A DNA stretch of 64,000 bases from positions 156,549 through 220,548 of the forward strand of contig JBKJIT010000003.1 of assembly GCA_046598345.1 (NCBI GenBank), written 5' to 3'. Numbering within the stretch: position 1 is the stretch's first letter; each line of letters starts with the position of its first letter. Position numbers and translations under genes: made by a program. Source of the DNA: Minisyncoccia bacterium (GTDB taxonomy: Bacteria > Patescibacteriota > Minisyncoccia > Phycocordibacterales > UBA918). Below the pieces are notes generated by a model. That model did not search any database and was not told where the DNA came from. It saw nothing but the letters and a program-made list of their open reading frames with translations. Below are positions 35,012 through 56,083 of this stretch, in pieces.

Positions 35012-35307
35012 GCGGTGGTAGCTCAACTGGTTAGAGCACCCGCCTGTAGACGTGCAGCTTTCTTTCCGAAAGGGGGATTGAAACTTTCCGGGATAACGGT
35101 GAAGGCTAAGTTTGCCATTTGGCGAATATGCGAATACCGTGGGAACCTTATACACAAAAACACATAGTATAAGGGCGCCGTAGAGACTAGATACCGGGAT
35201 ATCTAAAAGTTTGAAAAAACTCATGATAAAGATATAGTCCACGCCACTATGAAAATAGTGGAAGCAGTGCACGCGGGAGGTTGCGGGTTCGAGTCCCGTC
35301 CGCCGCG
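35012..35307 (+). tRNA. tRNA-Asp(GUC) interrupted by a 222-nt group I intron between anticodon positions 35 and 36
   Basis: exons 35012..35047 and 35270..35307 join to GCGGTGGTAGCTCAACTGGTTAGAGCACCCGCCTGTCACGCGGGAGGTTGCGGGTTCGAGTCCCGTCCGCCGCG plus discriminator G. This matches E. coli tRNA-Asp closely (loop CTGTCAC, G73, C38, G10); 5' exon ends in U, intron ends in G. Confidence 0.8.
35048..35269 (+). mobile_element. group I intron (small, ORF-less) in tRNA-Asp
   Basis: internal guide GTGCAG at intron nt 5-10: CAG pairs the exon CUG(U.G) to form P1 with a U.G wobble at the splice site, and GTG pairs the 3' exon CAC (P10). An R-like element tagagactag lies at 35181-35190 and an exact S element aagatatagtcc at 35229-35240; a P9-like hairpin ccactat-gaaa-atagtgg precedes the terminal G at 35269. 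Confidence 0.75.
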
Positions 35308-39064: not shown

Positions 39065-39985
39065 ATGTTTACGGGTATTAAACGAATTATTCGCGCTGGT
39101 TTTGTGGGGTTTTGGCGCAACGCATTTGTTTCCTTGGCAGCCATTTTTGTAATGACCGTGACACTTACCGTGATTGCAGGAGTGCTTTTATTAGGACAAA
39201 TCCTCAATGCTTCTCTTTCACAGATTGAAGAAAAGGTTGATATCAACGTCTACTTTGTGACGAGTGCCGAGGAAGAAAGTATTTTGAAATTTAAAACCTC
39301 ACTCGAAACACTTCCGGATGTACGAGACGTAACGTACACGAATCGCAATGATGCACTCGCACAGTTTAGGGAGCGTCACCAGAATGACGAACTTACACTC
39401 CAGGCGCTTGAAGAACTCGATGACAATCCACTCGGGGCAACGCTTTCCATTCGAGCAAAAGAAACTTCGCAGTATGAAAACATTTCAACCTTCATTCAGG
39501 AACAACGCGCGAGTGAGGACGCAGAGAACCCACTCATTGATCGAGTAAATTACCTCAACAATAAAGACGCAATCGACAAGCTGACGAATATTATTAATGC
39601 AGTTGAGCGGTCAAGTCTCATTGCCATGATTGTGCTGGTCGCCTCATCAATTCTCATTACCTTCAACACCATTCGTCTCGCTATTTACACCATGCGTGAG
39701 GAAATTTCCATCATGCGGCTTGTGGGTGCGGGGAACATGTTTATCCGTGGGCCATTTATGCTTCAGGGCGTCATGTATGGGCTCGTTGCAGGAGTTATAA
39801 CCCTACTCATCATTTATCCTACTGTTCTTTGGCTTGGGCCGGCGACTGAAAGTTTCTTCTCTCTTAACCTCTTTGTACACTTCGTAAATAACTTCGCTTA
39901 CTTCTTCCTTGTCCTTGTCGGTTCGGGAATGGCACTCGGCCTTATTTCGAGCACGCTCGCAGTTGCACGCTACCTTCGCATCTAA
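39065..39985 (+). CDS. ftsX: cell-division permease-like protein FtsX
   Basis: four TM segments with a large first periplasmic loop, immediately after ftsE. Confidence 0.8.
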   Translation: MFTGIKRIIRAGFVGFWRNAFVSLAAIFVMTVTLTVIAGVLLLGQILNASLSQIEEKVDINVYFVTSAEEESILKFKTSLETLPDVRDVTYTNRNDALAQFRERHQNDELTLQALEELDDNPLGATLSIRAKETSQYENISTFIQEQRASEDAENPLIDRVNYLNNKDAIDKLTNIINAVERSSLIAMIVLVASSILITFNTIRLAIYTMREEISIMRLVGAGNMFIRGPFMLQGVMYGLVAGVITLLIIYPTVLWLGPATESFFSLNLFVHFVNNFAYFFLVLVGSGMALGLISSTLAVARYLRI

Positions 39986-39988
39986 CGC

Positions 39989-41662
39989 ATGAAGAAGAAT
40001 CAAAAGAAACTGAAAAGCACGAAAAAAGAACATGCATACATCTTCGTCGTCGGCGGGGTCATGAGTGGAGTTGGGAAGGGAATTTCCTCTTCGTCGATCG
40101 CGATGCTTCTTCAGGCGCGTGGGCTCATCGTGACCGCAGTAAAAATTGATCCATACATCAACGTTGACGCAGGTACGATGAATCCGACTGAACACGGTGA
40201 GGTGTTTGTGCTAAATACAGGCCTTGAAACTGATCAGGATATGGGGAACTACGAGCGTTTTCTCAATATCGATATTCCAGGCATTAACTACATGACGACA
40301 GGGAGTGTGTACCAGGATGTTATCCGTAAGGAGCGCAATCTTGAGTACAAAGGAAAGAATGTTGAGGTTGTTCCGGATTTCCCGAGAGAGGTAATTAGAC
40401 GAATTAAAATTGCTGCGGAAGCTGCGAACGCTGATGTGACGCTCATTGAAGTGGGAGGAACGGTAGGAGAATACCAAAACGTACTGTTTCTCGAAGCAGT
40501 ACGTATGATGAAATCTGAAATGCCCCACAAGGTTGCGGTCGTCATGGTCAGTTATCTTCCGGTTCCGTACAGTATCGGAGAAATGAAAACAAAACCAACG
40601 CAAACAGCTGTGCGAAGCCTGAATAGCGCCGGAGTTTTTGCCGATTTTATCCTTGCGCGCGGCCCCGCGCCACTCGATATAAAACGCAAAGAGAAGATTG
40701 CGCAATTCTGTAATGTGCGAGCGGAACACGTTATCTCAGCACCTGATGTTGCGAGCGTCTATGACATTCCCCTCAATTTTGAAAAAGATGATCTCTCTAA
40801 GCGCATTTGTGAGGTACTTGGTATTAAAAAGATTAAGCCACTCAACCTAACGCTCTGGAAAAAATTTGTTGAGCGTTCAAAAAATGGAAAGGATACGGTG
40901 AAGATAGCCGTAGTAGGAAAATATTTTAATTCAGGAGATTTCGTCCTTTCGGATGTCTATATTTCGGTCCTTGAAGCAATTAAGTACTCTGCATATGCAC
41001 TCCACTTGAAGCCTGAAATAGTGTATCTCTCGTCTGCGCAGTTCGCTGACGCAAAACAACTCCGGAAGCTCAAAGAGTACGACGGGGTCCTTATTCCGGG
41101 AGGATTTGGTTCAACGGGAATTGAAGGAAAACTCAAGGTGATAGCCTATGTCCGCAAAAATAAGATCCCATACTTCGGACTCTGCTACGGAATGCAGCTT
41201 GCAGTACTTGAGTATGCCCAGAATGTGCTGCGTCTCTCACATGCAAGCACGGAAGAAATCGATCCTACCTCGAAGCATTTGGTTATTGGGGTGATGCCTG
41301 ATCAAAGGGATAAAATAGCGAAAGGGGATATGGGGGGCACGATGCGTCTTGGTGAATATGTGTCAGTTTTAGAAAAAGGTTCAATTGCAGCCAATGCGTA
41401 TGGTACCCGAGAAATAACCGAACGACATCGTCATCGGTACGAGGTGAATCCTGAATATATAGAGAGGCTTCAAAATAAAGGCCTTGTGTTTTCCGGCACC
41501 TCGCCCGACGGAAGGCTTATGGAAATCATGGAACTTCCTAAAGACGAACATCCTTTTTTCCTAGCAACACAATTTCATCCAGAATTTCACGCTCGCCCAC
41601 TTCGTCCGCACCCACTTTTCACAGCTTTCATCAAGGCTTCGTATGAAAACAAAACAGGCTAG
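39989..41662 (+). CDS. pyrG: CTP synthase
   Basis: IFVVGGVMSGVGKGISSSSIAMLL N-terminal synthetase motif and a C-terminal glutamine amidotransferase domain (LCYGMQ...HPEF). Confidence 0.9.
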   Translation: MKKNQKKLKSTKKEHAYIFVVGGVMSGVGKGISSSSIAMLLQARGLIVTAVKIDPYINVDAGTMNPTEHGEVFVLNTGLETDQDMGNYERFLNIDIPGINYMTTGSVYQDVIRKERNLEYKGKNVEVVPDFPREVIRRIKIAAEAANADVTLIEVGGTVGEYQNVLFLEAVRMMKSEMPHKVAVVMVSYLPVPYSIGEMKTKPTQTAVRSLNSAGVFADFILARGPAPLDIKRKEKIAQFCNVRAEHVISAPDVASVYDIPLNFEKDDLSKRICEVLGIKKIKPLNLTLWKKFVERSKNGKDTVKIAVVGKYFNSGDFVLSDVYISVLEAIKYSAYALHLKPEIVYLSSAQFADAKQLRKLKEYDGVLIPGGFGSTGIEGKLKVIAYVRKNKIPYFGLCYGMQLAVLEYAQNVLRLSHASTEEIDPTSKHLVIGVMPDQRDKIAKGDMGGTMRLGEYVSVLEKGSIAANAYGTREITERHRHRYEVNPEYIERLQNKGLVFSGTSPDGRLMEIMELPKDEHPFFLATQFHPEFHARPLRPHPLFTAFIKASYENKTG

Positions 41663-49095: not shown

Positions 49096-49133
49096 ATGTA
49101 AAGTCGACTTGACATGTGTGTAGCTCGTGCATT
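49096..49133 (+). promoter_or_regulatory. sigma70-like promoter candidate: TTGACA -35 element (49106-49111) with an A/T-rich downstream region; no convincing -10 hexamer identified
   Basis: TTGACA hexamer plus AT-rich sequence about 50 nt upstream of the XRE gene. Confidence 0.4.
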
Positions 49134-49158
49134 ATAGTGTATATAAATCAGAAATGAT

Positions 49159-49371
49159 ATGGGAGAATATATTTCAAACACTGTGTATACCTTACGTACC
49201 AAAAAAAATCTCACTCAAGAAGAGTTTGCTCAAAAACTTGGTATTACAAGACAAACCGTTATTTCAATCGAAAAGGGAAATTACACCCCTTCAGTATTAT
49301 TGGCCCTTAAAATCGCGTCTGTTTTTAAAGTACGAGTCGAAGATATTTTTACTATTACCTATGACAAATAA
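49159..49371 (+). CDS. XRE-family helix-turn-helix transcriptional regulator
   Basis: KKNLTQEEFAQKLGITRQTVISIEKGNYTPSVLLALKIASVF, the classic HTH_3 motif. Confidence 0.8.
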   Translation: MGEYISNTVYTLRTKKNLTQEEFAQKLGITRQTVISIEKGNYTPSVLLALKIASVFKVRVEDIFTITYDK

Positions 49372-49726
49372 TAAAATTATTCACATTAGTATTGCAGTAC
49401 TTCTTGTCGTGTTCCTCACACTATTATCTGATCCGTTTATGTACTGGATGCCAATGGGTTTACAAATGGTGGCACTGCTTGGAGCGGCCGTACTTGGAGC
49501 GGTTTGGTCTGGATTTGTGATGTATGAACGTGCACCTGATGAACGTGAAGCGATTCATCGAATGCATGCAGGGCGTATGGCCTACCTTTCAGGAATTATG
49601 ATACTTACTATTGCGTTGGTGACACAAGGACTAGCTCATGATATCGACCCGTGGATTTCTGTTGCATTGGGTACTATGGTACTCGTGAAGCTTTTTTCTC
49701 GGTTCTATTCCGAGCGATATAAGTGA
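49361..49726 (+). CDS. small membrane protein co-encoded with the XRE regulator
   Basis: internal ATG overlapping the XRE stop; three predicted TM helices. Confidence 0.5.
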   Translation: MTNNKIIHISIAVLLVVFLTLLSDPFMYWMPMGLQMVALLGAAVLGAVWSGFVMYERAPDEREAIHRMHAGRMAYLSGIMILTIALVTQGLAHDIDPWISVALGTMVLVKLFSRFYSERYK

Positions 49727-49784
49727 GGTATCAACAGTGCATATGTAAAGTATGCTTTACACATGATGTATACTGTCAGGACAC

Positions 49785-51092
49785 ATGAATACAAAAATAA
49801 TACTAGCTTTTTTAGGTACTGTAGCTCTCGTCGTGGGAGTGTTATTTTTTATTAACGCACAAAATCCAAGCGAAGAAGCTTTGTCTCTATCTAATCTTCA
49901 AAATCAAGGCGAGGTTACCGAGCCGGTTACACTTTCAGATGATAATCCTACTCCGGGGGAGTCTGCATCTGAAATTCAAGTGACAGATGAACAGACACAC
50001 AGAGAAGAAAATGCTGTGCCAGTAGCCTCAAAACAAATGGTACAGTCTTCAACGAAACTCGCACTTTTTGCCAATGGTTGTTTCTGGTGTGTGGAAGCTG
50101 ACTTAGAAAAAGTAGCTGGAGTGAAAAGCGTCATCTCGGGATATGCTGGTGGGACCACAATAAGTCCAACGTATGAGAACGCTACTGTCGGAGGGCACAG
50201 AGAGGTTGTGTTAGTAACATATGATCCCACTATCGTTAGTTACGCTAACCTTGTTGAACACATCATTAAACACGGTGATCCGACTGATGCCTCTGGATCA
50301 TTTAATGACAGAGGTCCGCAATATGCGCCGGCGATCTACTATGAGAATGACGGAGAGAAAGATGAAGCGCTTCGAGTAATTGCAGCAATCGATGCAATGA
50401 AGGTATTTTCAAATCCCTTGCCACTTCTTGTTACACCAACAGTAAAATTCTGGCCCGCAGAAGAGTATCATCAAGATTTTGCAAAGAAAAACTCACTAAA
50501 ATATGGTTATTACCGAACGGGGTCAGGAAGGAGTGCGTTTATCGAAAAAACGTGGGGCGATAGAGCGTCACGATTTGAAGTTCCTGCGCAATCACTAAAT
50601 ACAGCGCAGGAGATGAATAAAGAGATAGCATCATTCAACACTATGTCATGGAAATCATTTATAAAACCATCAGAAGACACGTTAAGGGATGTACTCACTC
50701 CTTTGCAGTATGAGGTAACACAGGAAGAAGGAACAGAATCGCCCTTCAAAAATGAATACGACAAAAACTGGAAGGAGGGTATATACGTTGATATTGTTTC
50801 CGGAGAGCCTTTGTACCTTTCAAAGGATAAGTATGATTCTGGAACTGGCTGGCCGTCATTTGTGAAGCCAATTTCAATTGATGTCGTCACATTAAAAGTG
50901 GACAAGGGATTATTCAGTACACGTACAGAAGTACGTTCGCGCTATGCCGACTCGCACATTGGTCATGTTTTTGACGACGGACCTACCGATCGTGGCGGTA
51001 AACGGTACTGTATGAATTCTGCGGCGTTGCGTTTCGTTGCTAAGGCAGAAATGGAAAAAGAGGGGTATGGGTACCTACTCACACAAATGTAA
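49785..51092 (+). CDS. msrAB: bifunctional peptide methionine sulfoxide reductase MsrA/MsrB, membrane-anchored (extracytoplasmic type)
   Basis: N-terminal TM segment; GCFWCVE (MsrA active site) and GWPSF...HIGHVF...RYCMNSAAL (MsrB). Confidence 0.85.
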
Positions 51093-51094
51093 CT

Positions 51095-51760
51095 ATGCAA
51101 AGGAAGTACATCGTTCTTGTTCTTGGTTGTATAGCATTTGCTGGAATGCTTTTTGTACTCCACCAGTCAGGTGTACTTTCTGAATTCCAAGGTGAGGAGC
51201 TTAAACGCACCATTCTTGGGTTCGGAGTATTGGCTCCGATCGTGTACATGTCGTTGTATGCTCTCGCGTCAGTATTGTTTATTCCTGGAAGTCCTCTAAC
51301 TCTTGCGGGAGGGGCACTTTTTGGTCCGTTATATGGAACAATATATACCATAGTGGGGGCAACCATTGGCGCACTTCTGGCGTTCACTTTATCGCGAACA
51401 CTTGGTCGAAAGTTTATCTCATTCGGAAATGGAAGTGTGTCACAAAAACTCCAGACATACGACGTAAAAATTGCTCAGCATGGATTTCTGATGGTATTGT
51501 TTCTACGATTTGTACCGCTATTTCCATTTAATGGACTCAACTTTGCACTTGGATTAACAAAAGTGTCATATAGGGATTACTTCCTCGGAACCTTTTTGGG
51601 CATTATTCCAGGTACATTTGCATACGTCTATTTTGGAGACTCACTCGCAACACTCAGTCCATTAAGAATTGTTAGCGCAGTGGCTCTTGTTGTTGCCCTG
51701 ACTCTCTTGGGAAGATATGTTCTGAAACGCTATCAGAGTAACAATGCACAGTTGCTATGA
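51095..51760 (+). CDS. DedA / TVP38-TMEM64 family membrane protein
   Basis: FIPGSPLTLAGGALFGPLYGTIYTIVGATIGALLAF signature. Confidence 0.75.
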   Translation: MQRKYIVLVLGCIAFAGMLFVLHQSGVLSEFQGEELKRTILGFGVLAPIVYMSLYALASVLFIPGSPLTLAGGALFGPLYGTIYTIVGATIGALLAFTLSRTLGRKFISFGNGSVSQKLQTYDVKIAQHGFLMVLFLRFVPLFPFNGLNFALGLTKVSYRDYFLGTFLGIIPGTFAYVYFGDSLATLSPLRIVSAVALVVALTLLGRYVLKRYQSNNAQLL

Positions 51761-53184
51761 AAAAAGAAAATATATTCGACATCATTGTTATTGGGGCGGG
51801 ATCAGGTGGTTTGAACATCGCGTCATTTATTAATCGTGTTGGGCTCAAAGTGCTTTTGATAGACAAAAGTAATGCACATATCGGAGGCGATTGTCTTAAT
51901 TTTGGATGTGTTCCTTCTAAGGCCTTAATTCATGTTGCACGAACAGTGCGCGAGGCACAACGTGCCACTCGCTTCGGCCTCACTGTTAGTGGTGAGGTAG
52001 ATTGGCAAAAAGTTCGTTCCTATATACAACAAAAACAAGACATCATTCGTACACATGAAAACGCTGACTGGTTTCGGTCAAAAGGAATGTCAGTTGTACT
52101 AGGGAAGGCTTCTTTTGTCTCAAAAAATACAGTCGCAGTTAATGAGGTTGCCTATCAAGGGAAAAAGATTGTGCTTGCGACAGGTTCACGTCCGAGAGTG
52201 TTGGAAGGAAAAGGTATAGAGCAAGTAACAAGAGTTCTGAACAATGAAAATGTATTTACTATGGAGACATTGCCACAGAGCCTGTTAGTGCTTGGTGGGG
52301 GTCCAATCGGTATTGAAATTGCACAGGCACTCTCCTATCTAGGCTCAAAAGTGACTGTTGTTGATCCTGGCACTCAGATTCTTAGTAAGGAAGATAGAGA
52401 CATTGCTGATGTACTCCAAGGACAGATGAAGAACGAGGGAGTACAATTTCTTTTAGAACACACATTAAAAGAATTTACCTCTCCTACAGAAGCGGTTTTC
52501 ATGACGAACGATGGTATTGAAGTCAGGGTTACGTTTGACGCAGTCTTCATTGGGATTGGTCGCGTTTTAAATATTGAGGGGTTGGAATTAGAGAAAGCTG
52601 GCATCGAAATAGATGAAAAAGGGAAACTTGTTGTTGATGCATATTTGAGTACCACTAATAAAAACGTCTTCGCATGTGGTGATGTTGCTGGAAACTATCA
52701 GTTTACGCATGCTGCAGAAATGCACGCAAGCGTTATTTTAAAAAACTTCTTTTCACCGTTTAAGAAAAAATTTAATGGGGACTCAATTTCCTGGACTACG
52801 TACACGACTCCTGAAATAGCGACATTTGGTGTGCAAGAAACAGAACTCAAAAAAAGAAATATTGCCTATATTGTACTTGTATCAGATTTTAACGAAGATG
52901 ATAGGGCTATTACGGATGAATACCAGTATGGAAAAGCAAAACTTTTTATTACCGAGAAAGGAAAAGTTTTGGGTGGAACCTTGGTTGCACCACATGCCGG
53001 TGAACTCATCCAAGAACTTGTACTTGCACAAACAAACGGGCTTTCAGTTCGCTCTTTGTTCAATAAAACATATGCGTATCCAACTGCTTCTCGTATTAAT
53101 AAACGTCTCGTCTCGAGCTATTTTGCGTCTAAACTTACTGCAACGACGAACACCCTACTGCGTTTTTTGTACAGACTATTTTAA
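51757..53184 (+). CDS. class I pyridine nucleotide-disulfide oxidoreductase (Lpd/MerA-like FAD protein)
   Basis: DIIVIGAGSGGLNIA FAD-binding fold and the redox-active disulfide motif GGDCLNFGCVPSK. Confidence 0.8.
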   Translation: MKKENIFDIIVIGAGSGGLNIASFINRVGLKVLLIDKSNAHIGGDCLNFGCVPSKALIHVARTVREAQRATRFGLTVSGEVDWQKVRSYIQQKQDIIRTHENADWFRSKGMSVVLGKASFVSKNTVAVNEVAYQGKKIVLATGSRPRVLEGKGIEQVTRVLNNENVFTMETLPQSLLVLGGGPIGIEIAQALSYLGSKVTVVDPGTQILSKEDRDIADVLQGQMKNEGVQFLLEHTLKEFTSPTEAVFMTNDGIEVRVTFDAVFIGIGRVLNIEGLELEKAGIEIDEKGKLVVDAYLSTTNKNVFACGDVAGNYQFTHAAEMHASVILKNFFSPFKKKFNGDSISWTTYTTPEIATFGVQETELKKRNIAYIVLVSDFNEDDRAITDEYQYGKAKLFITEKGKVLGGTLVAPHAGELIQELVLAQTNGLSVRSLFNKTYAYPTASRINKRLVSSYFASKLTATTNTLLRFLYRLF

Positions 53185-53285
53185 GGTGAGTACGGCTGGC
53201 TATCCACATAGATAATGTAAAGTATACTTTACATTTAGATATTGAATCTATATACTTATCTCTATTAATACGCAATCATAAAAAT

Positions 53286-53930
53286 ATGAATAAAAATATA
53301 GGAATTGTTGTTGGGGCGATAGCACTCGTTGTCATTGTTGGAGGAGTCTTCGCTTCAATCAGCGACACAGATAATGCCGCGATGATGGAGAAGCAAAAGA
53401 TGGAGCAGGTGGCGATGGAGAAAGAAAAAATGGAAAAGGAAGCAATGCTGAAAGAGCAGATGATGAAAGATGAAGCAATGGAGAAGGATGCATTGACAAA
53501 AGCAGAGGACTCAATGATGAAAGAGGATGACGCAACTATGATGGAAAAAGACGAGGGGGCGATGATGGACACGTCGACAGACGGTACTTTGATGAAAGAC
53601 GAGCAAGTCATGATGAAAGCGGGTTCATATGAGTCGTATGCATCTACAAAGGTTGCGATGGCTTCCGTAAGCCACGACGTCGTACTCTTTTTCCGTGCGA
53701 GCTGGTGCCCGACCTGTAGGGCAGTAGATGCAGACATCAAGGCCCATCTAAAAGATATTCCTGGGACTCTCTCTATCCTCGACGTAGACTACGACAATTC
53801 AACTGATCTCAAGAAAAAGTATGGGGTTACCTATCAGCACACATTTGTGCAAGTCGATGCACAAGGAAATCTCATCAAAAAGTGGAGTGGCAGTCCGACG
53901 CTCTCAGCACTTGTTGCGGAAGTAAAATAA
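53286..53930 (+). CDS. membrane-anchored thioredoxin-like protein with a Met/Lys/Glu-rich linker
   Basis: TM anchor, about 90 aa containing more than 20 Met (AMMEKQKMEQVAMEKEKMEKEAMLKEQMMKDEAMEKD...), then a thioredoxin fold with WCPTC. Confidence 0.7.
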   Translation: MNKNIGIVVGAIALVVIVGGVFASISDTDNAAMMEKQKMEQVAMEKEKMEKEAMLKEQMMKDEAMEKDALTKAEDSMMKEDDATMMEKDEGAMMDTSTDGTLMKDEQVMMKAGSYESYASTKVAMASVSHDVVLFFRASWCPTCRAVDADIKAHLKDIPGTLSILDVDYDNSTDLKKKYGVTYQHTFVQVDAQGNLIKKWSGSPTLSALVAEVK

Positions 53931-53934
53931 CACA

Positions 53935-55314
53935 ATGGTACTCCTACTCGTATCATTCATAGCTGGAGTACTGACGGTACTTGCGCCCTGCGTACTCCCG
54001 CTTCTTCCAGTGATTGTGGGTGGAAGTATTGGTGGTGGCAAGAGCTGGAAGCGTGCAATAACCGTTACCGCGTCACTTGCGGTTTCGGTTATTGTGTTTA
54101 CACTTCTCATAAAAGCGAGTACGCTTTTTATCGACATACCGCAGGATTTCTGGAAGTGGTTTTCCGGTAGTATTATCATCGTTTTCGGGCTCGTTACTGT
54201 TTTCCCGAACCTGTGGGAGAAATTGCCCTTTCTCTCAAAACTAAGCATTGGAAGCAATAAGTTGCTTTCCACTGGTTACCAAAAACAAAACTTCGTAGGC
54301 GATGCTATTGTCGGCGCGTCGCTCGGTCCAGTGTTCTCGACGTGTAGCCCGACGTATTTTCTTGTATTAGCTGCAGTACTTCCTGAAAATCTTGGTTTGG
54401 GCATACTGTACCTCATTGCTTATTCTTTCGGACTCTCACTCTCGCTCCTACTCGTTGCTTTTGTTGGACAGAAGATTATAGACAGGGCAGGAGTTGTTGC
54501 AAACTCGCATGGCTGGTTTAAGAAAACTCTTGGAGTACTGTTTCTGATTGTAGGCATCGCGATAATTTTCGGAGTGGACAAATCACTCCAAGTAAAAGTA
54601 CTCGATGCAGGATTTTTTGACGTAACAAAGATTGAGCAAAAATTGCTTGAATTAGTCCCTCGAGGTAAAGGGGAAGACGTCTCGGTTATACGTGAAAAAG
54701 AGGGAGTGGCACCAGTACCAGTGATTGTTGCTGAAGCAAAACCTGTTGTAGAGAAAGAAATGCCTGTGACTGTATCCGATATAGAGAATAACACTGTAGT
54801 ACAATCAGTTATTTCTCCTGCACCTGTTCGTGATGTAGAAAGTTTGGACGTGCGTGCTCCAGAAATAGTAAATCCTAGTGGGTTTATCAATACGGATGGA
54901 AAGCCAATTACTTTCGGAGAATTTAAAGGAAAGAAAGTGGTTCTGGTAAGTTTCTGGACATACAGCTGTATAAACTGCCAACGCACATTGCCATACCTAA
55001 ACTCATGGTATGAAAAGTATAAGGATCAAGGATTGGAAATAGTGAGTATCCACACACCAGAGTTTGCGTACGAGCAGGTCTTAAAAAATGTTGAAAAAGA
55101 GGTACTCAACACATACGACATCAAATATCCCGTGGTTCTCGACAACGACTATAGTACGTGGAAAGCGTTTGGAAATCGTTATTGGCCGAGGAAGTATCTC
55201 GTTGATATTGATGGGTATATCGTATATGACCATATTGGTGAAGGGGCGTATGATGAGACAGAAGAAGAGATACAGGAAGCACTCAAAAAACGCGCAGAAC
55301 GATTAGGTCAATAA
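53935..55314 (+). CDS. CcdA/DsbD-type membrane thiol-disulfide transporter fused to a thioredoxin-like (TlpA/ResA-like) domain
   Basis: LAPCVLPLLP two-Cys TM motif in a six-TM domain; C-terminal WTYSCINCQ thioredoxin CxxC. Confidence 0.8.
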   Translation: MVLLLVSFIAGVLTVLAPCVLPLLPVIVGGSIGGGKSWKRAITVTASLAVSVIVFTLLIKASTLFIDIPQDFWKWFSGSIIIVFGLVTVFPNLWEKLPFLSKLSIGSNKLLSTGYQKQNFVGDAIVGASLGPVFSTCSPTYFLVLAAVLPENLGLGILYLIAYSFGLSLSLLLVAFVGQKIIDRAGVVANSHGWFKKTLGVLFLIVGIAIIFGVDKSLQVKVLDAGFFDVTKIEQKLLELVPRGKGEDVSVIREKEGVAPVPVIVAEAKPVVEKEMPVTVSDIENNTVVQSVISPAPVRDVESLDVRAPEIVNPSGFINTDGKPITFGEFKGKKVVLVSFWTYSCINCQRTLPYLNSWYEKYKDQGLEIVSIHTPEFAYEQVLKNVEKEVLNTYDIKYPVVLDNDYSTWKAFGNRYWPRKYLVDIDGYIVYDHIGEGAYDETEEEIQEALKKRAERLGQ

Positions 55315-55339
55315 TGAGGGTCGTGTGACTGTGTGAAAT

Positions 55340-55915
55340 ATGTATAAAAAAATTATTTTCGGAGTTGTAGCCATTGTTTTTGTAAGTGTTGTGTATTACG
55401 GTATTTCGCCACTATTCAGAAACACTCGCATTGACGAAGTTGCACCAGTCTCGAAAGAGTCGCCGTTTGCAACTTCTTCAGGCGCAATAGTGGAGACCGA
55501 AGATTCTATGTCAGAGGAAAAATCATCACCAAGCGGGATGAAAAAACCAGTTGATGATACCTTAACTCAACCACGACCCAAAGAGGAGTTACCACTGACG
55601 GTAGTCTCATCACCTATTATTGGTACCACGGGGCATCCTGCAAGCGGAACTGCTCGAATCATCAATACGGAAGGTGGTGCTGTGATTCGCTATGAGAATT
55701 TTAAGACACTTAATGGTCCAGATTTGTTTGTCTATCTGGCAAAAGACCTCGACGCAGAAAGTTTTATAAATCTCGGTGAATTAAAAGCGACTGAAGGTAA
55801 TGTGAATTACGCTGTGCCCACAAATGTAGATGTGAATGAATACAAATACGTCATGGTGTGGTGCAGGCAGTTTGGCGTACTCTTTAATTATGCGGACCTG
55901 TCTTTGATTCGCTAG
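55340..55915 (+). CDS. DM13-domain protein (putative electron-transfer domain), membrane-anchored
   Basis: IRYENFKTLNGPDLFVYLAKD resembles the DM13 signature. Confidence 0.55.
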   Translation: MYKKIIFGVVAIVFVSVVYYGISPLFRNTRIDEVAPVSKESPFATSSGAIVETEDSMSEEKSSPSGMKKPVDDTLTQPRPKEELPLTVVSSPIIGTTGHPASGTARIINTEGGAVIRYENFKTLNGPDLFVYLAKDLDAESFINLGELKATEGNVNYAVPTNVDVNEYKYVMVWCRQFGVLFNYADLSLIR

Positions 55916-56083
55916 TGTATACAGCACAATCTAGAATCTTCAAATGAGACGTAGACCGAGACGGGTGTTTTCTGTCACATTTGTATCAGGTCAAAACAGA
56001 TACATTGACGGAAAAACTGAGTTGATTAACAAAGTGCTTGATGAATCTGGATTTGTGAGGTGGAAAGCCAATCTTCCTTAAAG

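Follow-up and report, generated by a model that had tools for sequence, protein, structure and literature searches.

What brings a membrane-anchored methionine sulfoxide reductase, a DedA membrane protein, a flavoprotein, two thioredoxin-fold proteins and a DM13-domain protein together in one row of genes in a member of the Patescibacteria? The row lies on contig JBKJIT010000003.1 of a Minisyncoccia bacterium (assembly GCA_046598345.1), within a stretch of 64,000 nucleotides (nt) analysed as a whole and referred to here as the window, to which all positions refer. A preliminary description of the window, made from its letters alone, had proposed a cluster for extracytoplasmic methionine-sulfoxide repair and electron delivery. 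We conclude that these genes probably belong to a larger, eight-gene cell-envelope oxidative-stress regulon built around extracytoplasmic methionine-sulfoxide repair. The evidence for this reading comes from the conservation of the gene set through repeated rearrangement, from an operator-like palindrome common to its members, and from the predicted properties of the encoded proteins.

Gene content and conservation of the cluster

The six consecutive same-strand open reading frames (ORFs) that the preliminary description placed at 49785-55915 were all found, and every one of its domain calls proved right in searches of Pfam and NCBIfam (Table 1). Its six-gene extent held only in part: those genes are present, but the unit is larger, beginning at 49096 and adding the genes for an XRE-family helix-turn-helix (HTH) protein and for a small membrane protein. 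From msrAB, which encodes an MsrA-MsrB fusion, to the DM13 gene the intergenic gaps are, in order, 2, -4, 101, 4 and 25 nt, the negative value being the 4-nt overlap (ATGA) of the dedA stop codon with the start of the gene for a flavin adenine dinucleotide (FAD) disulfide oxidoreductase, here called FADox. A contig of the Logan assemblies (L003) carries the identical locus.

At least eight independent related contigs carry these genes together, though their order differs and some are fused, and because of this recurrence the arrangement is not a matter of chance. A genome-collection scan with FADox returned two loci only, and the wider picture comes from an alignment-based metagenome scan and contig look-ups; all-against-all clustering of neighbouring ORFs was noisy, owing to antisense ORFs and fusions, and was used only to pick representatives that were then checked against Pfam. 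Contig L096 has the gene order of the window plus a PG_binding gene, and its FADox is 56% identical to that of the window. In L005, L006 and L089 the order is HTH gene, small membrane protein, methionine-rich (Met-rich) thioredoxin, CcdA, MsrAB, DedA and FADox, with CcdA and MsrAB fused into a single protein in L005 (623 amino acids) and L089 (647 amino acids). Two further contigs (L085 and L001) retain the MsrAB-DedA-FADox block, and L090-L095 have the HTH gene, the small membrane protein gene, the Met-rich thioredoxin gene and a DipZ-type ccdA; the DM13 gene can stand divergently upstream of this latter group, and in L092 MsrB and MsrA genes follow downstream of it. By these comparisons the HTH, small membrane protein, Met-rich thioredoxin and CcdA genes form the stable core and MsrAB-DedA-FADox a second block, with DM13 as a mobile satellite.

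A common palindrome and its candidate regulator

A 20-bp palindrome, ATGTAAAG-N4-CTTTACAT, occurs three times in the window, each time with at most one mismatch and always within the cluster; even with up to 3 mismatches allowed, chance would give 0.36 matches in a window. Across 1.06 Mb of related loci it was present (at most 2 mismatches) in only 15 loci, and in all 14 of those with gene maps every copy is intergenic within the cluster. It precedes msrAB in L001, L085 and L096 (in L085, 22 nt ahead of the called start) and the Met-rich thioredoxin gene in L005, L006, L089 and L090-L096, and it lies between the divergent DM13 and HTH genes in L090-L093 and between the FADox and msrA genes in L024. 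In the fifteenth locus (L010), whose surrounding genes are not in the gene map, the palindrome stands at the start of an isolated ORF in which DedA and FADox are fused. Since the palindrome is common to them, DM13 and DedA-FADox are tied to the same presumed regulator as the rest. The preliminary description had counted neither the FAD oxidoreductase nor DM13 among the standard members of surface methionine sulfoxide reductase systems, and we agree, adding that both are conserved here and have their operator in common with the other genes.

The XRE HTH gene is kept beside the cluster in L005, L006, L085, L089 and L090-L096. We infer from the placement of the palindrome that the regulon is co-regulated through it, with the XRE protein as the presumed repressor. 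The small membrane protein had no significant Pfam match in its window copy, and its relatives give a weak or faint match to DUF2178. It has a conserved Met-rich outer loop (PFMYWMPMG in the window; also IPFWMPMMGEM) and a conserved DPWI motif, and homologues lie at 2129-2485 of L005 and 6184-6570 of L006. Through its Met-rich outer loop this protein might act as an oxidation-sensing input that MsrAB could reset.

Table 1. Positions of the cluster genes and of the candidate control sites in the window.
Feature	Position	Strand	Basis or remark
msrAB, MsrA-MsrB fusion with membrane anchor	49785-51092	+	PMSR and SelR (Pfam/NCBIfam)
dedA, DedA/VTT-domain membrane protein	51095-51760	+	VTT/DedA, 109.9 bits
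FADox, class-I FAD disulfide oxidoreductase, cytoplasmic	51757-53184	+	Pyr_redox_2 and Pyr_redox_dim
Met-rich thioredoxin, membrane-anchored	53286-53930	+	Thioredoxin (Pfam); Met-rich tether at nt 53358-53621
DipZ-type CcdA fused to TlpA/Etrx-like thioredoxin domain	53935-55314	+	DsbD_TM and Redoxin/AhpC-TSA
DM13 protein, membrane-anchored	55340-55915	+	DM13, 67.2 bits
XRE-family HTH protein, 70 amino acids, presumed regulon repressor	49159-49371	+	HTH_3, E 1.3e-15
Small membrane protein, 121 amino acids, 3-4 transmembrane segments	49361-49726	+	overlaps HTH gene by 11 nt
Operator O1, ATGTAAAGTCGACTTGACAT	49096-49115		1 mismatch; overlaps -35 of promoter-like site before HTH gene
Operator O2	49743-49762		22 nt upstream of msrAB start codon
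Operator O3, perfect palindrome ATGTAAAGTATACTTTACAT	53215-53234		overlaps -35 of second promoter-like site
Promoter-like site TTGACA-18-TATAGT, 11/12	49109-49138	+	upstream of HTH gene; consensus match only
Promoter-like site TTTACA-17-TATACT, 10/12	53228-53256	+	upstream of Met-rich thioredoxin gene; consensus match only
Weak terminator-like hairpin 3' of DM13	55960-55976	+	suggestive only

The repair core and its predicted topology

Both catalytic domains of the reductase appear intact by their motifs and model scores. MsrA has the GCFWC motif (C99/C102) and MsrB the catalytic C409 in RYCMN, the usual resolving cysteine being absent (GTGWP), and the protein scores above the cut-offs of both TIGR00401 (125.7 bits against 108.1) and TIGR00357 (194.8 bits against 113.05). 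The CcdA part of the DipZ-type protein matches DsbD_TM at 39.2 bits (cut-off 27.1) and has its membrane cysteines at C19 in LAPCVLP and C137 in STCSPT, with the outer CxxC of the fused domain at C345/C348. That fused domain matches Mycobacterium tuberculosis DipZ (2hyx) with an E value of 3e-42 over residues 307-451, and three solved chains of the thioredoxin family (2yp6, 4hqz and 4hqs) are also among its matches, at E values of about 1e-9. We take these three chains to be the pneumococcal Etrx proteins. Together with the CcdA-MsrAB fusions of the relatives, these matches bear out the likeness to the pneumococcal ccdA-etrx-msrAB system that the preliminary description had pointed to. The core of the cluster is thus of a known kind, with a DipZ-type CcdA, surface thioredoxins and MsrAB. 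Three relatives, L006 (12525-13166), L085 (5863-6360) and L089 (10588-11085), have another, short MsrA gene, encoded on the opposite strand and a few kb past the downstream end of the cluster; its product has 165 amino acids where called (L085, L089) and, because it is short, is presumed to be cytoplasmic.

MsrAB, the Met-rich thioredoxin and DM13 each open with one or two lysines followed by a hydrophobic stretch of about 19 residues (residues 5-23 in MsrAB), after which MsrAB and the Met-rich thioredoxin have an acidic segment; the AlphaFold models of DM13 and the Met-rich thioredoxin also have an N-terminal helix. In CcdA the loops rich in lysine and arginine alternate sides, which fits an N-terminus and a fused domain that are both outside, and a six-helix CcdA in this orientation is the accepted topology. 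On hydropathy, therefore, MsrAB, DM13 and the two thioredoxin folds are all predicted to lie on the outer side of the cytoplasmic membrane. The outward-facing domains of the preliminary description agree with these anchors and with the charges of the CcdA loops, as a hydropathy-based prediction. FADox is devoid of any hydrophobic segment, and in natural DedA-FADox fusions the FAD-binding motif begins about 10 residues past the last DedA helix; on these two grounds FADox should lie on the cytoplasmic face of the membrane.

A thioredoxin with a methionine-rich tether

The separate thioredoxin is anchored by residues 5-23, and residues 25-112 form a tether to its thioredoxin domain, which is nearest to classical thioredoxins and has its WCPTC motif at C141/C144. 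Methionine makes up 18 of the 88 tether residues, or 20.5% (the baseline in long ORFs of the window is 2.4%), and a further 43% are lysine, glutamate or aspartate, with no histidine and no cysteine. The Met-rich linker of the preliminary description is thereby confirmed, its figure of about 25% being slightly high for the whole linker. Among 120 homologues the tether is conserved with a median linker methionine content of 22%, a prevalence that is biased upward because the homologue search prefers sequences that have words in common with the query, and 102 of the 120 have WCPTC. The Met-rich thioredoxin belongs to a family conserved among Patescibacteria.

AlphaFold models the thioredoxin domain with a predicted local distance difference test score (pLDDT) above 90 and the tether at 45-74, part helix and then coil, so that the tether is predicted to be flexible and is probably unstructured. 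When it was searched alone the tether returned spurious low-complexity matches only. The pentapeptide MXKDX repeat protein model (TIGR02953) was rejected as an identity for it, at 25.9 bits against a cut-off of 41, and the resemblance is compositional only. The thioredoxin homologues of L087 and L031 have no Met-rich tether, and their clusters carry DUF3179 instead of MsrAB; this correlation is small, resting on two clusters, and it favours a link between tether and Msr. In those two contigs the thioredoxin-CcdA pair serves DUF3179 rather than MsrAB, CcdA being fused to DUF3179 in L031 (5031-6701, 8039-8524) and the genes separate in L087 (4159-12683).

The preliminary description had offered two roles for the Met-rich segment, a sacrificial sink for reactive oxygen species or a Cu(I)-binding site. 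We favour the sink and hold Cu(I) binding to be possible. By analogy the tether may be a tethered, recyclable oxidant sink of the kind formed by the hypochlorite scavenger MrpX, re-reduced by MsrAB, a reading favoured by its MrpX-like composition, its low pLDDT and its absence from the two clusters with DUF3179 in place of MsrAB. L006 combines a stand-alone CcdA with the Met-rich thioredoxin as its only thioredoxin, which suggests that the Met-rich thioredoxin is probably the main carrier to MsrAB.

DedA and the flavoprotein

Of 48 metagenome loci with enough flank, 31 have a DedA gene on the strand of the FADox gene, either fused to it or no more than 400 nt away, and fusions of the two, at 38-55% identity, were seen in P0115, L010, L016 and enterobacterial plasmids. 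NCBI names the fusion 'bifunctional TVP38/TMEM64 family protein/FAD-dependent oxidoreductase'. The oxidoreductase is the commonest fusion partner of COG0398 DedA proteins, with its function there unassigned (PMC10127716). DedA and FADox are thus an ancient and already known recurrent pair. The window DedA was rejected as an UptA-type protein, with 24 bits against a cut-off of 250.

FADox retains its redox disulfide GGDCLNFGCVPSK (C46/C51), has C307 as its sole other cysteine and has no C-terminal cysteine. Where Escherichia coli Lpd reads HAHPTLHE, FADox reads YAYPTASRINK, so that tyrosine and arginine replace the His-Glu dyad, and Y439, Y441, R446, N448 and K449 are invariant in an alignment of 12 sequences (56-69% identity to the window protein). 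Because this acid-base dyad is missing, ordinary disulfide reduction by FADox is uncertain. Its NAD-binding strand ends in aspartate (VTVVD), and in this family a terminal aspartate on that strand suggests NADH as the cofactor.

Several named identities for FADox were tried and rejected: Lpd (TIGR01350, 349.8 bits against a cut-off of 408.8; no E1/E2 genes nearby and the dyad replaced), MerA (TIGR02053, 299 against 454; no C-terminal cysteine pair, no NmerA domain, no mer genes), RclA (216.7 bits against 740; the E. coli protein is 28% identical and keeps histidine where FADox has tyrosine), GR (below its cut-off) and the hypothiocyanite reductase Har (below its cut-off, with differing active-site residues).

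The neighbours of the pair vary. In the lineage of the window, translation of FADox is coupled with that of msrAB and dedA. FADox of L087 accompanies a thioredoxin-CcdA-glutaredoxin-DUF3179 group, with a fusion of G6PD and 6PGD directly after the FADox gene and, in front of DedA-FADox, an ArsR regulator and an 81-residue peptide rich in cysteine and histidine; in L031 a glutaredoxin-like gene adjoins DedA-FADox. On the Salmonella IncC plasmid NZ_CP051400.1 (L099, 60849-62993) a DedA-FADox fusion, 38% identical, stands near an ECF sigma factor and follows genes for DUF2282, DUF692, a DNA-binding-domain protein and DoxX; the DUF2282-DUF692-DoxX set presumably resembles the operons of copper-binding 'bufferin' peptides. 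Outside the Patescibacteria, in the flanks of FADox homologues of 35-58% identity (L011, L015, L018, L019, L061, L069 and others), the neighbours include GT2, DUF547, fatty-acid hydroxylase, radical-SAM with DUF3641, and a 116-residue membrane protein, and they hint at a lipid-related context for the pair.

Two roles for FADox seem to us about equally likely, each possible and each well short of an even chance: that it is a membrane-face reductase supplying the exported reducing pathway, perhaps with a small redoxin as intermediary, or that it is a separate reductase for an oxidant or metal generated by stress. Distinctly improbable is a more far-reaching proposal in which DedA and FADox would form an unrecognised means of bringing reducing power to or across the membrane, either as such or as a reduced thiol that is small or lipid-linked: DedA would flip or export a carrier reduced by NADH-driven FADox, powering surface MsrAB and the thioredoxins alongside or instead of thioredoxin-CcdA. 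The Tyr/Arg active site of FADox would then suit an anionic substrate. As a second element of this proposal, the membrane partner of the XRE protein may sense oxidants through its Met-rich outer loop, with MsrAB resetting it.

The DM13 protein

The DM13 match lies far above the Pfam cut-off of 25 bits, AlphaFold models the domain with confidence (mean pLDDT 85.8), and His99 and Cys175 are invariant in 117 homologues. A nearly invariant cysteine is a feature of the DM13 family, for which redox activity has been predicted in animals. A canonical Cu,Zn superoxide dismutase (SOD), a Greek-key barrel in which four histidines bind copper and His/Asp ligands bind zinc, was rejected as its identity, since only one histidine is invariant and the similarity to a SOD-like fold is weak (Foldseek E > 0.2). 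DM13 is associated with the regulon in four arrangements, found in the window and L096, in L001, in L052 and in L090-L093. Its probable role is that of a client of the thiol-reducing pathway, or of a helper to it.

Two of these arrangements have further genes. In L090 (4508-6233) the DM13 gene has a multicopper oxidase gene as its neighbour and points away from the HTH gene, with the operator in the intergenic region common to DM13 and the HTH gene. In the distant locus L052 (6305-11087) a FADox gene of 37% identity, with no DedA, is followed after about 300 nt by consecutive genes for a MIP-family channel, a membrane-anchored MsrAB, DM13 and a GMC oxidoreductase.

Alternative explanations

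The most serious competitor, which we nonetheless consider unlikely, is a system for copper or thiophilic-metal stress in which the tether binds Cu(I), the DipZ and thioredoxin proteins are Scs- or TlpA-like, FADox is a metal reductase of MerA/RclA type and DM13 is a metal-binding barrel with a fold like that of Cu,Zn-SOD. The tether is indeed rich in MxxxM and MM patterns and gives a weak match to the MXKDX repeat family; yet it is free of histidine and cysteine, and its composition equals that of a proven oxidant scavenger. FADox has tyrosine at the histidine position of disulfide reductases, as we believe MerA also does, but it is without the C-terminal cysteine pair and NmerA domain of MerA and falls far under the MerA and RclA cut-offs, RclA itself keeping the histidine. 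A multicopper oxidase as neighbour of DM13 (L090), ArsR together with the Cys/His-rich peptide (L087) and the gene set preceding the plasmid fusion (L099) all speak for metals, whereas the cluster itself holds no copper exporter, CopZ or CsoR/CueR regulator, and the weak fold similarity and single invariant histidine of DM13 fit the proposal poorly. CcdA is fused to MsrAB in two relatives, and no gene is coupled to DedA-FADox more tightly than msrAB. Copper defence and methionine repair are not mutually exclusive, HOCl and copper stress overlapping in known systems.

That there is no single unit, and that a standard CcdA-thioredoxin-MsrAB operon merely has DedA-FADox (and DM13) next to it as independent genes for housekeeping or membrane lipids, strikes us as very improbable. 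The 31 of 48 loci with adjacent or fused DedA and FADox are mostly without Msr, other phyla show the GT2, DUF547, fatty-acid hydroxylase and radical-SAM neighbours described above, and the literature connects COG0398 DedA proteins with lipid scrambling or aerobic metabolism rather than with Msr (PMC10127716). Against this stand the 2-nt gap to msrAB and the 4-nt overlap with FADox, and the contiguity of MsrAB-DedA-FADox in the window, L001, L005, L006, L085, L089 and L096 while other genes move. The operator ahead of the isolated fusion in L010 and between FADox and msrA in L024, and the divergent, operator-bearing promoter region that DM13 and the HTH gene have in common in L090-L093, point the same way. 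A shared operator and a synteny that persists through rearrangement thus contradict mere adjacency. Hardly credible is a role in cytochrome c maturation or general disulfide isomerisation (CcdA with thioredoxins of ResA/CcmG type), with MsrAB as a passenger: system II cytochrome c biogenesis typically has CcdA together with ResA-like (76 bits here) and CcmG-like WCPTC motifs, but all ResA/DsbE models score far under their cut-offs, no ccsBA/resBC or cytochrome c gene was seen in the cluster or in related loci, and CcdA is fused directly to MsrAB or DUF3179 in relatives.

Proposed pathway and significance

In the methionine-repair regulon that we prefer, CcdA would hand electrons from the cytoplasm to the surface thioredoxins, and these would pass them to MsrAB, which by analogy with the pneumococcal, Streptococcus gordonii, Fusobacterium and Neisseria systems would reduce both Met-S-oxide and Met-R-oxide in surface proteins. 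Two outward-facing reductants are predicted, the TlpA/Etrx-like domain fused to CcdA and the separately anchored WCPTC thioredoxin, whose tether may serve as an MrpX-like sacrificial sink re-reduced by the neighbouring MsrAB, so that scavenger and reductant carrier would be joined in one polypeptide. From the operator positions, the XRE protein would repress at three points, namely its own promoter, msrAB-dedA-FADox, and the genes from the Met-rich thioredoxin through ccdA to DM13; the small membrane protein, whose gene overlaps that of the XRE protein and whose outer loop is rich in methionine, is the likely signal input. Least certain are two further parts, in which DedA/FADox at the cytoplasmic membrane face would act as a reductase driven by NADH, supplying or supplementing the pathway via a small redoxin or CcdA, and DM13 would be a co-regulated surface protein, probably a client or helper of thiol reduction.

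Several observations weigh against this reading. FADox has neither a C-terminal redox tail nor the His-Glu pair used by disulfide reductases, and CcdA normally takes its electrons from cytoplasmic thioredoxin; for these reasons FADox as a direct donor to CcdA or a thioredoxin is chemically unproven. DedA-FADox is widespread with no Msr, thioredoxin or CcdA neighbour, and L090-L095 have the thioredoxin-DipZ core with no DedA-FADox; as each occurs without the other, DedA-FADox must be accessory, not obligatory. We sought a sigma-70 promoter beside O2 and found no convincing one, and two distant DM13 homologues (44-52% identity) stand in unrelated contexts away from the regulon. The topology was judged from hydropathy and the positive-inside rule alone, and the organism is uncultured, its regulon being known from sequence alone.

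Surface methionine repair has been well studied in a few pathogens and not in the candidate phyla radiation, and our literature search found no work joining Patescibacteria with methionine sulfoxide reductase and thioredoxin. On our reading the locus would define a conserved, operator-marked regulon in bacteria with reduced genomes, would offer in the MrpX-like tether on a thioredoxin a fusion of scavenger and reductant, and would give the first concrete physiological context for the widespread DedA/FADox pair and for the DM13 domain. The roles of DedA/FADox, DM13 and the scavenger-thioredoxin are directly testable with recombinant proteins.

Neighbouring features of the window

Genes for FtsX and CTP synthase precede the cluster region both in the window (39065-41662) and in a 72%-identical relative (L001, 2312-4931), which indicates that the wider chromosomal neighbourhood is conserved. 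Rfam gave a group I intron match at 35052-35261 (51.4 bits, barely over the gathering score of 50). A tRNA-Ile with anticodon TAT lies at 2219-2292, an uncommon bacterial means of reading AUA. No TrxB gene was found among ten further ORFs of the window, a 64-kb stretch that cannot show genome-wide absence. Hairpin sites like the one listed 3' of DM13 were no commoner in our terminator scan than in shuffled sequence.

Comparison with known systems

The closest counterparts of the regulon are the surface CcdA-Etrx-MsrAB systems, namely CcdA1-Etrx1-MsrAB2 of Streptococcus pneumoniae (PMC3914529), that of S. gordonii (PMC7034828) and msrAB-trx-ccdA of Fusobacterium nucleatum (PMC9239216), and also Neisseria PilB. 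Clustered genes, the CcdA conduit, outward folds of TlpA/Etrx type and an exported MsrA-MsrB fusion are common to these systems and the present one, and genes of the known systems respond to oxidative stress (PMC3914529, PMC7034828, PMC9239216). The differences lie in anchoring, where transmembrane helices or fusion to CcdA (DipZ-type) take the place of lipoprotein anchors; in the second, classical-type thioredoxin with its MrpX-like Met-rich tether, which the known systems do not have; in regulation, which here would involve an XRE HTH protein, a small membrane protein and a palindromic operator rather than a two-component system; and in the conserved additions of DedA-FADox and DM13 in a Patescibacteria host.

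MrpX of Azospira suillum is a periplasmic hypochlorite scavenger with 20% methionine and 44% charged residues, is probably unfolded, and is recycled by MsrP (YedY1) (PMC4436054). Like the MrpX/MsrP pair, our cluster encodes an exported, charged segment of about 20% methionine beside a methionine sulfoxide reductase; this likeness is one of composition only, the segment being of low complexity so that sequence homology is not claimable. MrpX is a free peptide, whereas the segment of our cluster tethers a thioredoxin domain to its membrane anchor, and the molybdoenzyme MsrP and the SigF/NrsF regulators of the MrpX system contrast with a thiol-dependent MsrAB and an XRE protein.

The DipZ-type protein has the N-terminal CcdA membrane domain and TlpA-like thioredoxin domain of M. 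tuberculosis DipZ (2hyx, 5cyy). At 459 amino acids, however, it is without the C-terminal Thioredoxin_10 domain of DipZ (no PF17991 match), which relatives of 585-588 amino acids in L090-L094 do have. FADox resembles Lpd, MerA, RclA and Har in its fold, its FAD and NAD(P)H sites and its GGxCxxxGCxPSK redox disulfide, and it differs from all of them in its invariant YAYPTASRINK, in having no C-terminal cysteine pair and in scoring under every equivalog cut-off. The same two domains make up the known COG0398 DedA-oxidoreductase pair, here as overlapping genes and with the window DedA placed by the VTT/DedA model, not by COG0398; unlike that known pair, DedA and FADox are here embedded in a surface Msr/thioredoxin regulon with a common operator.

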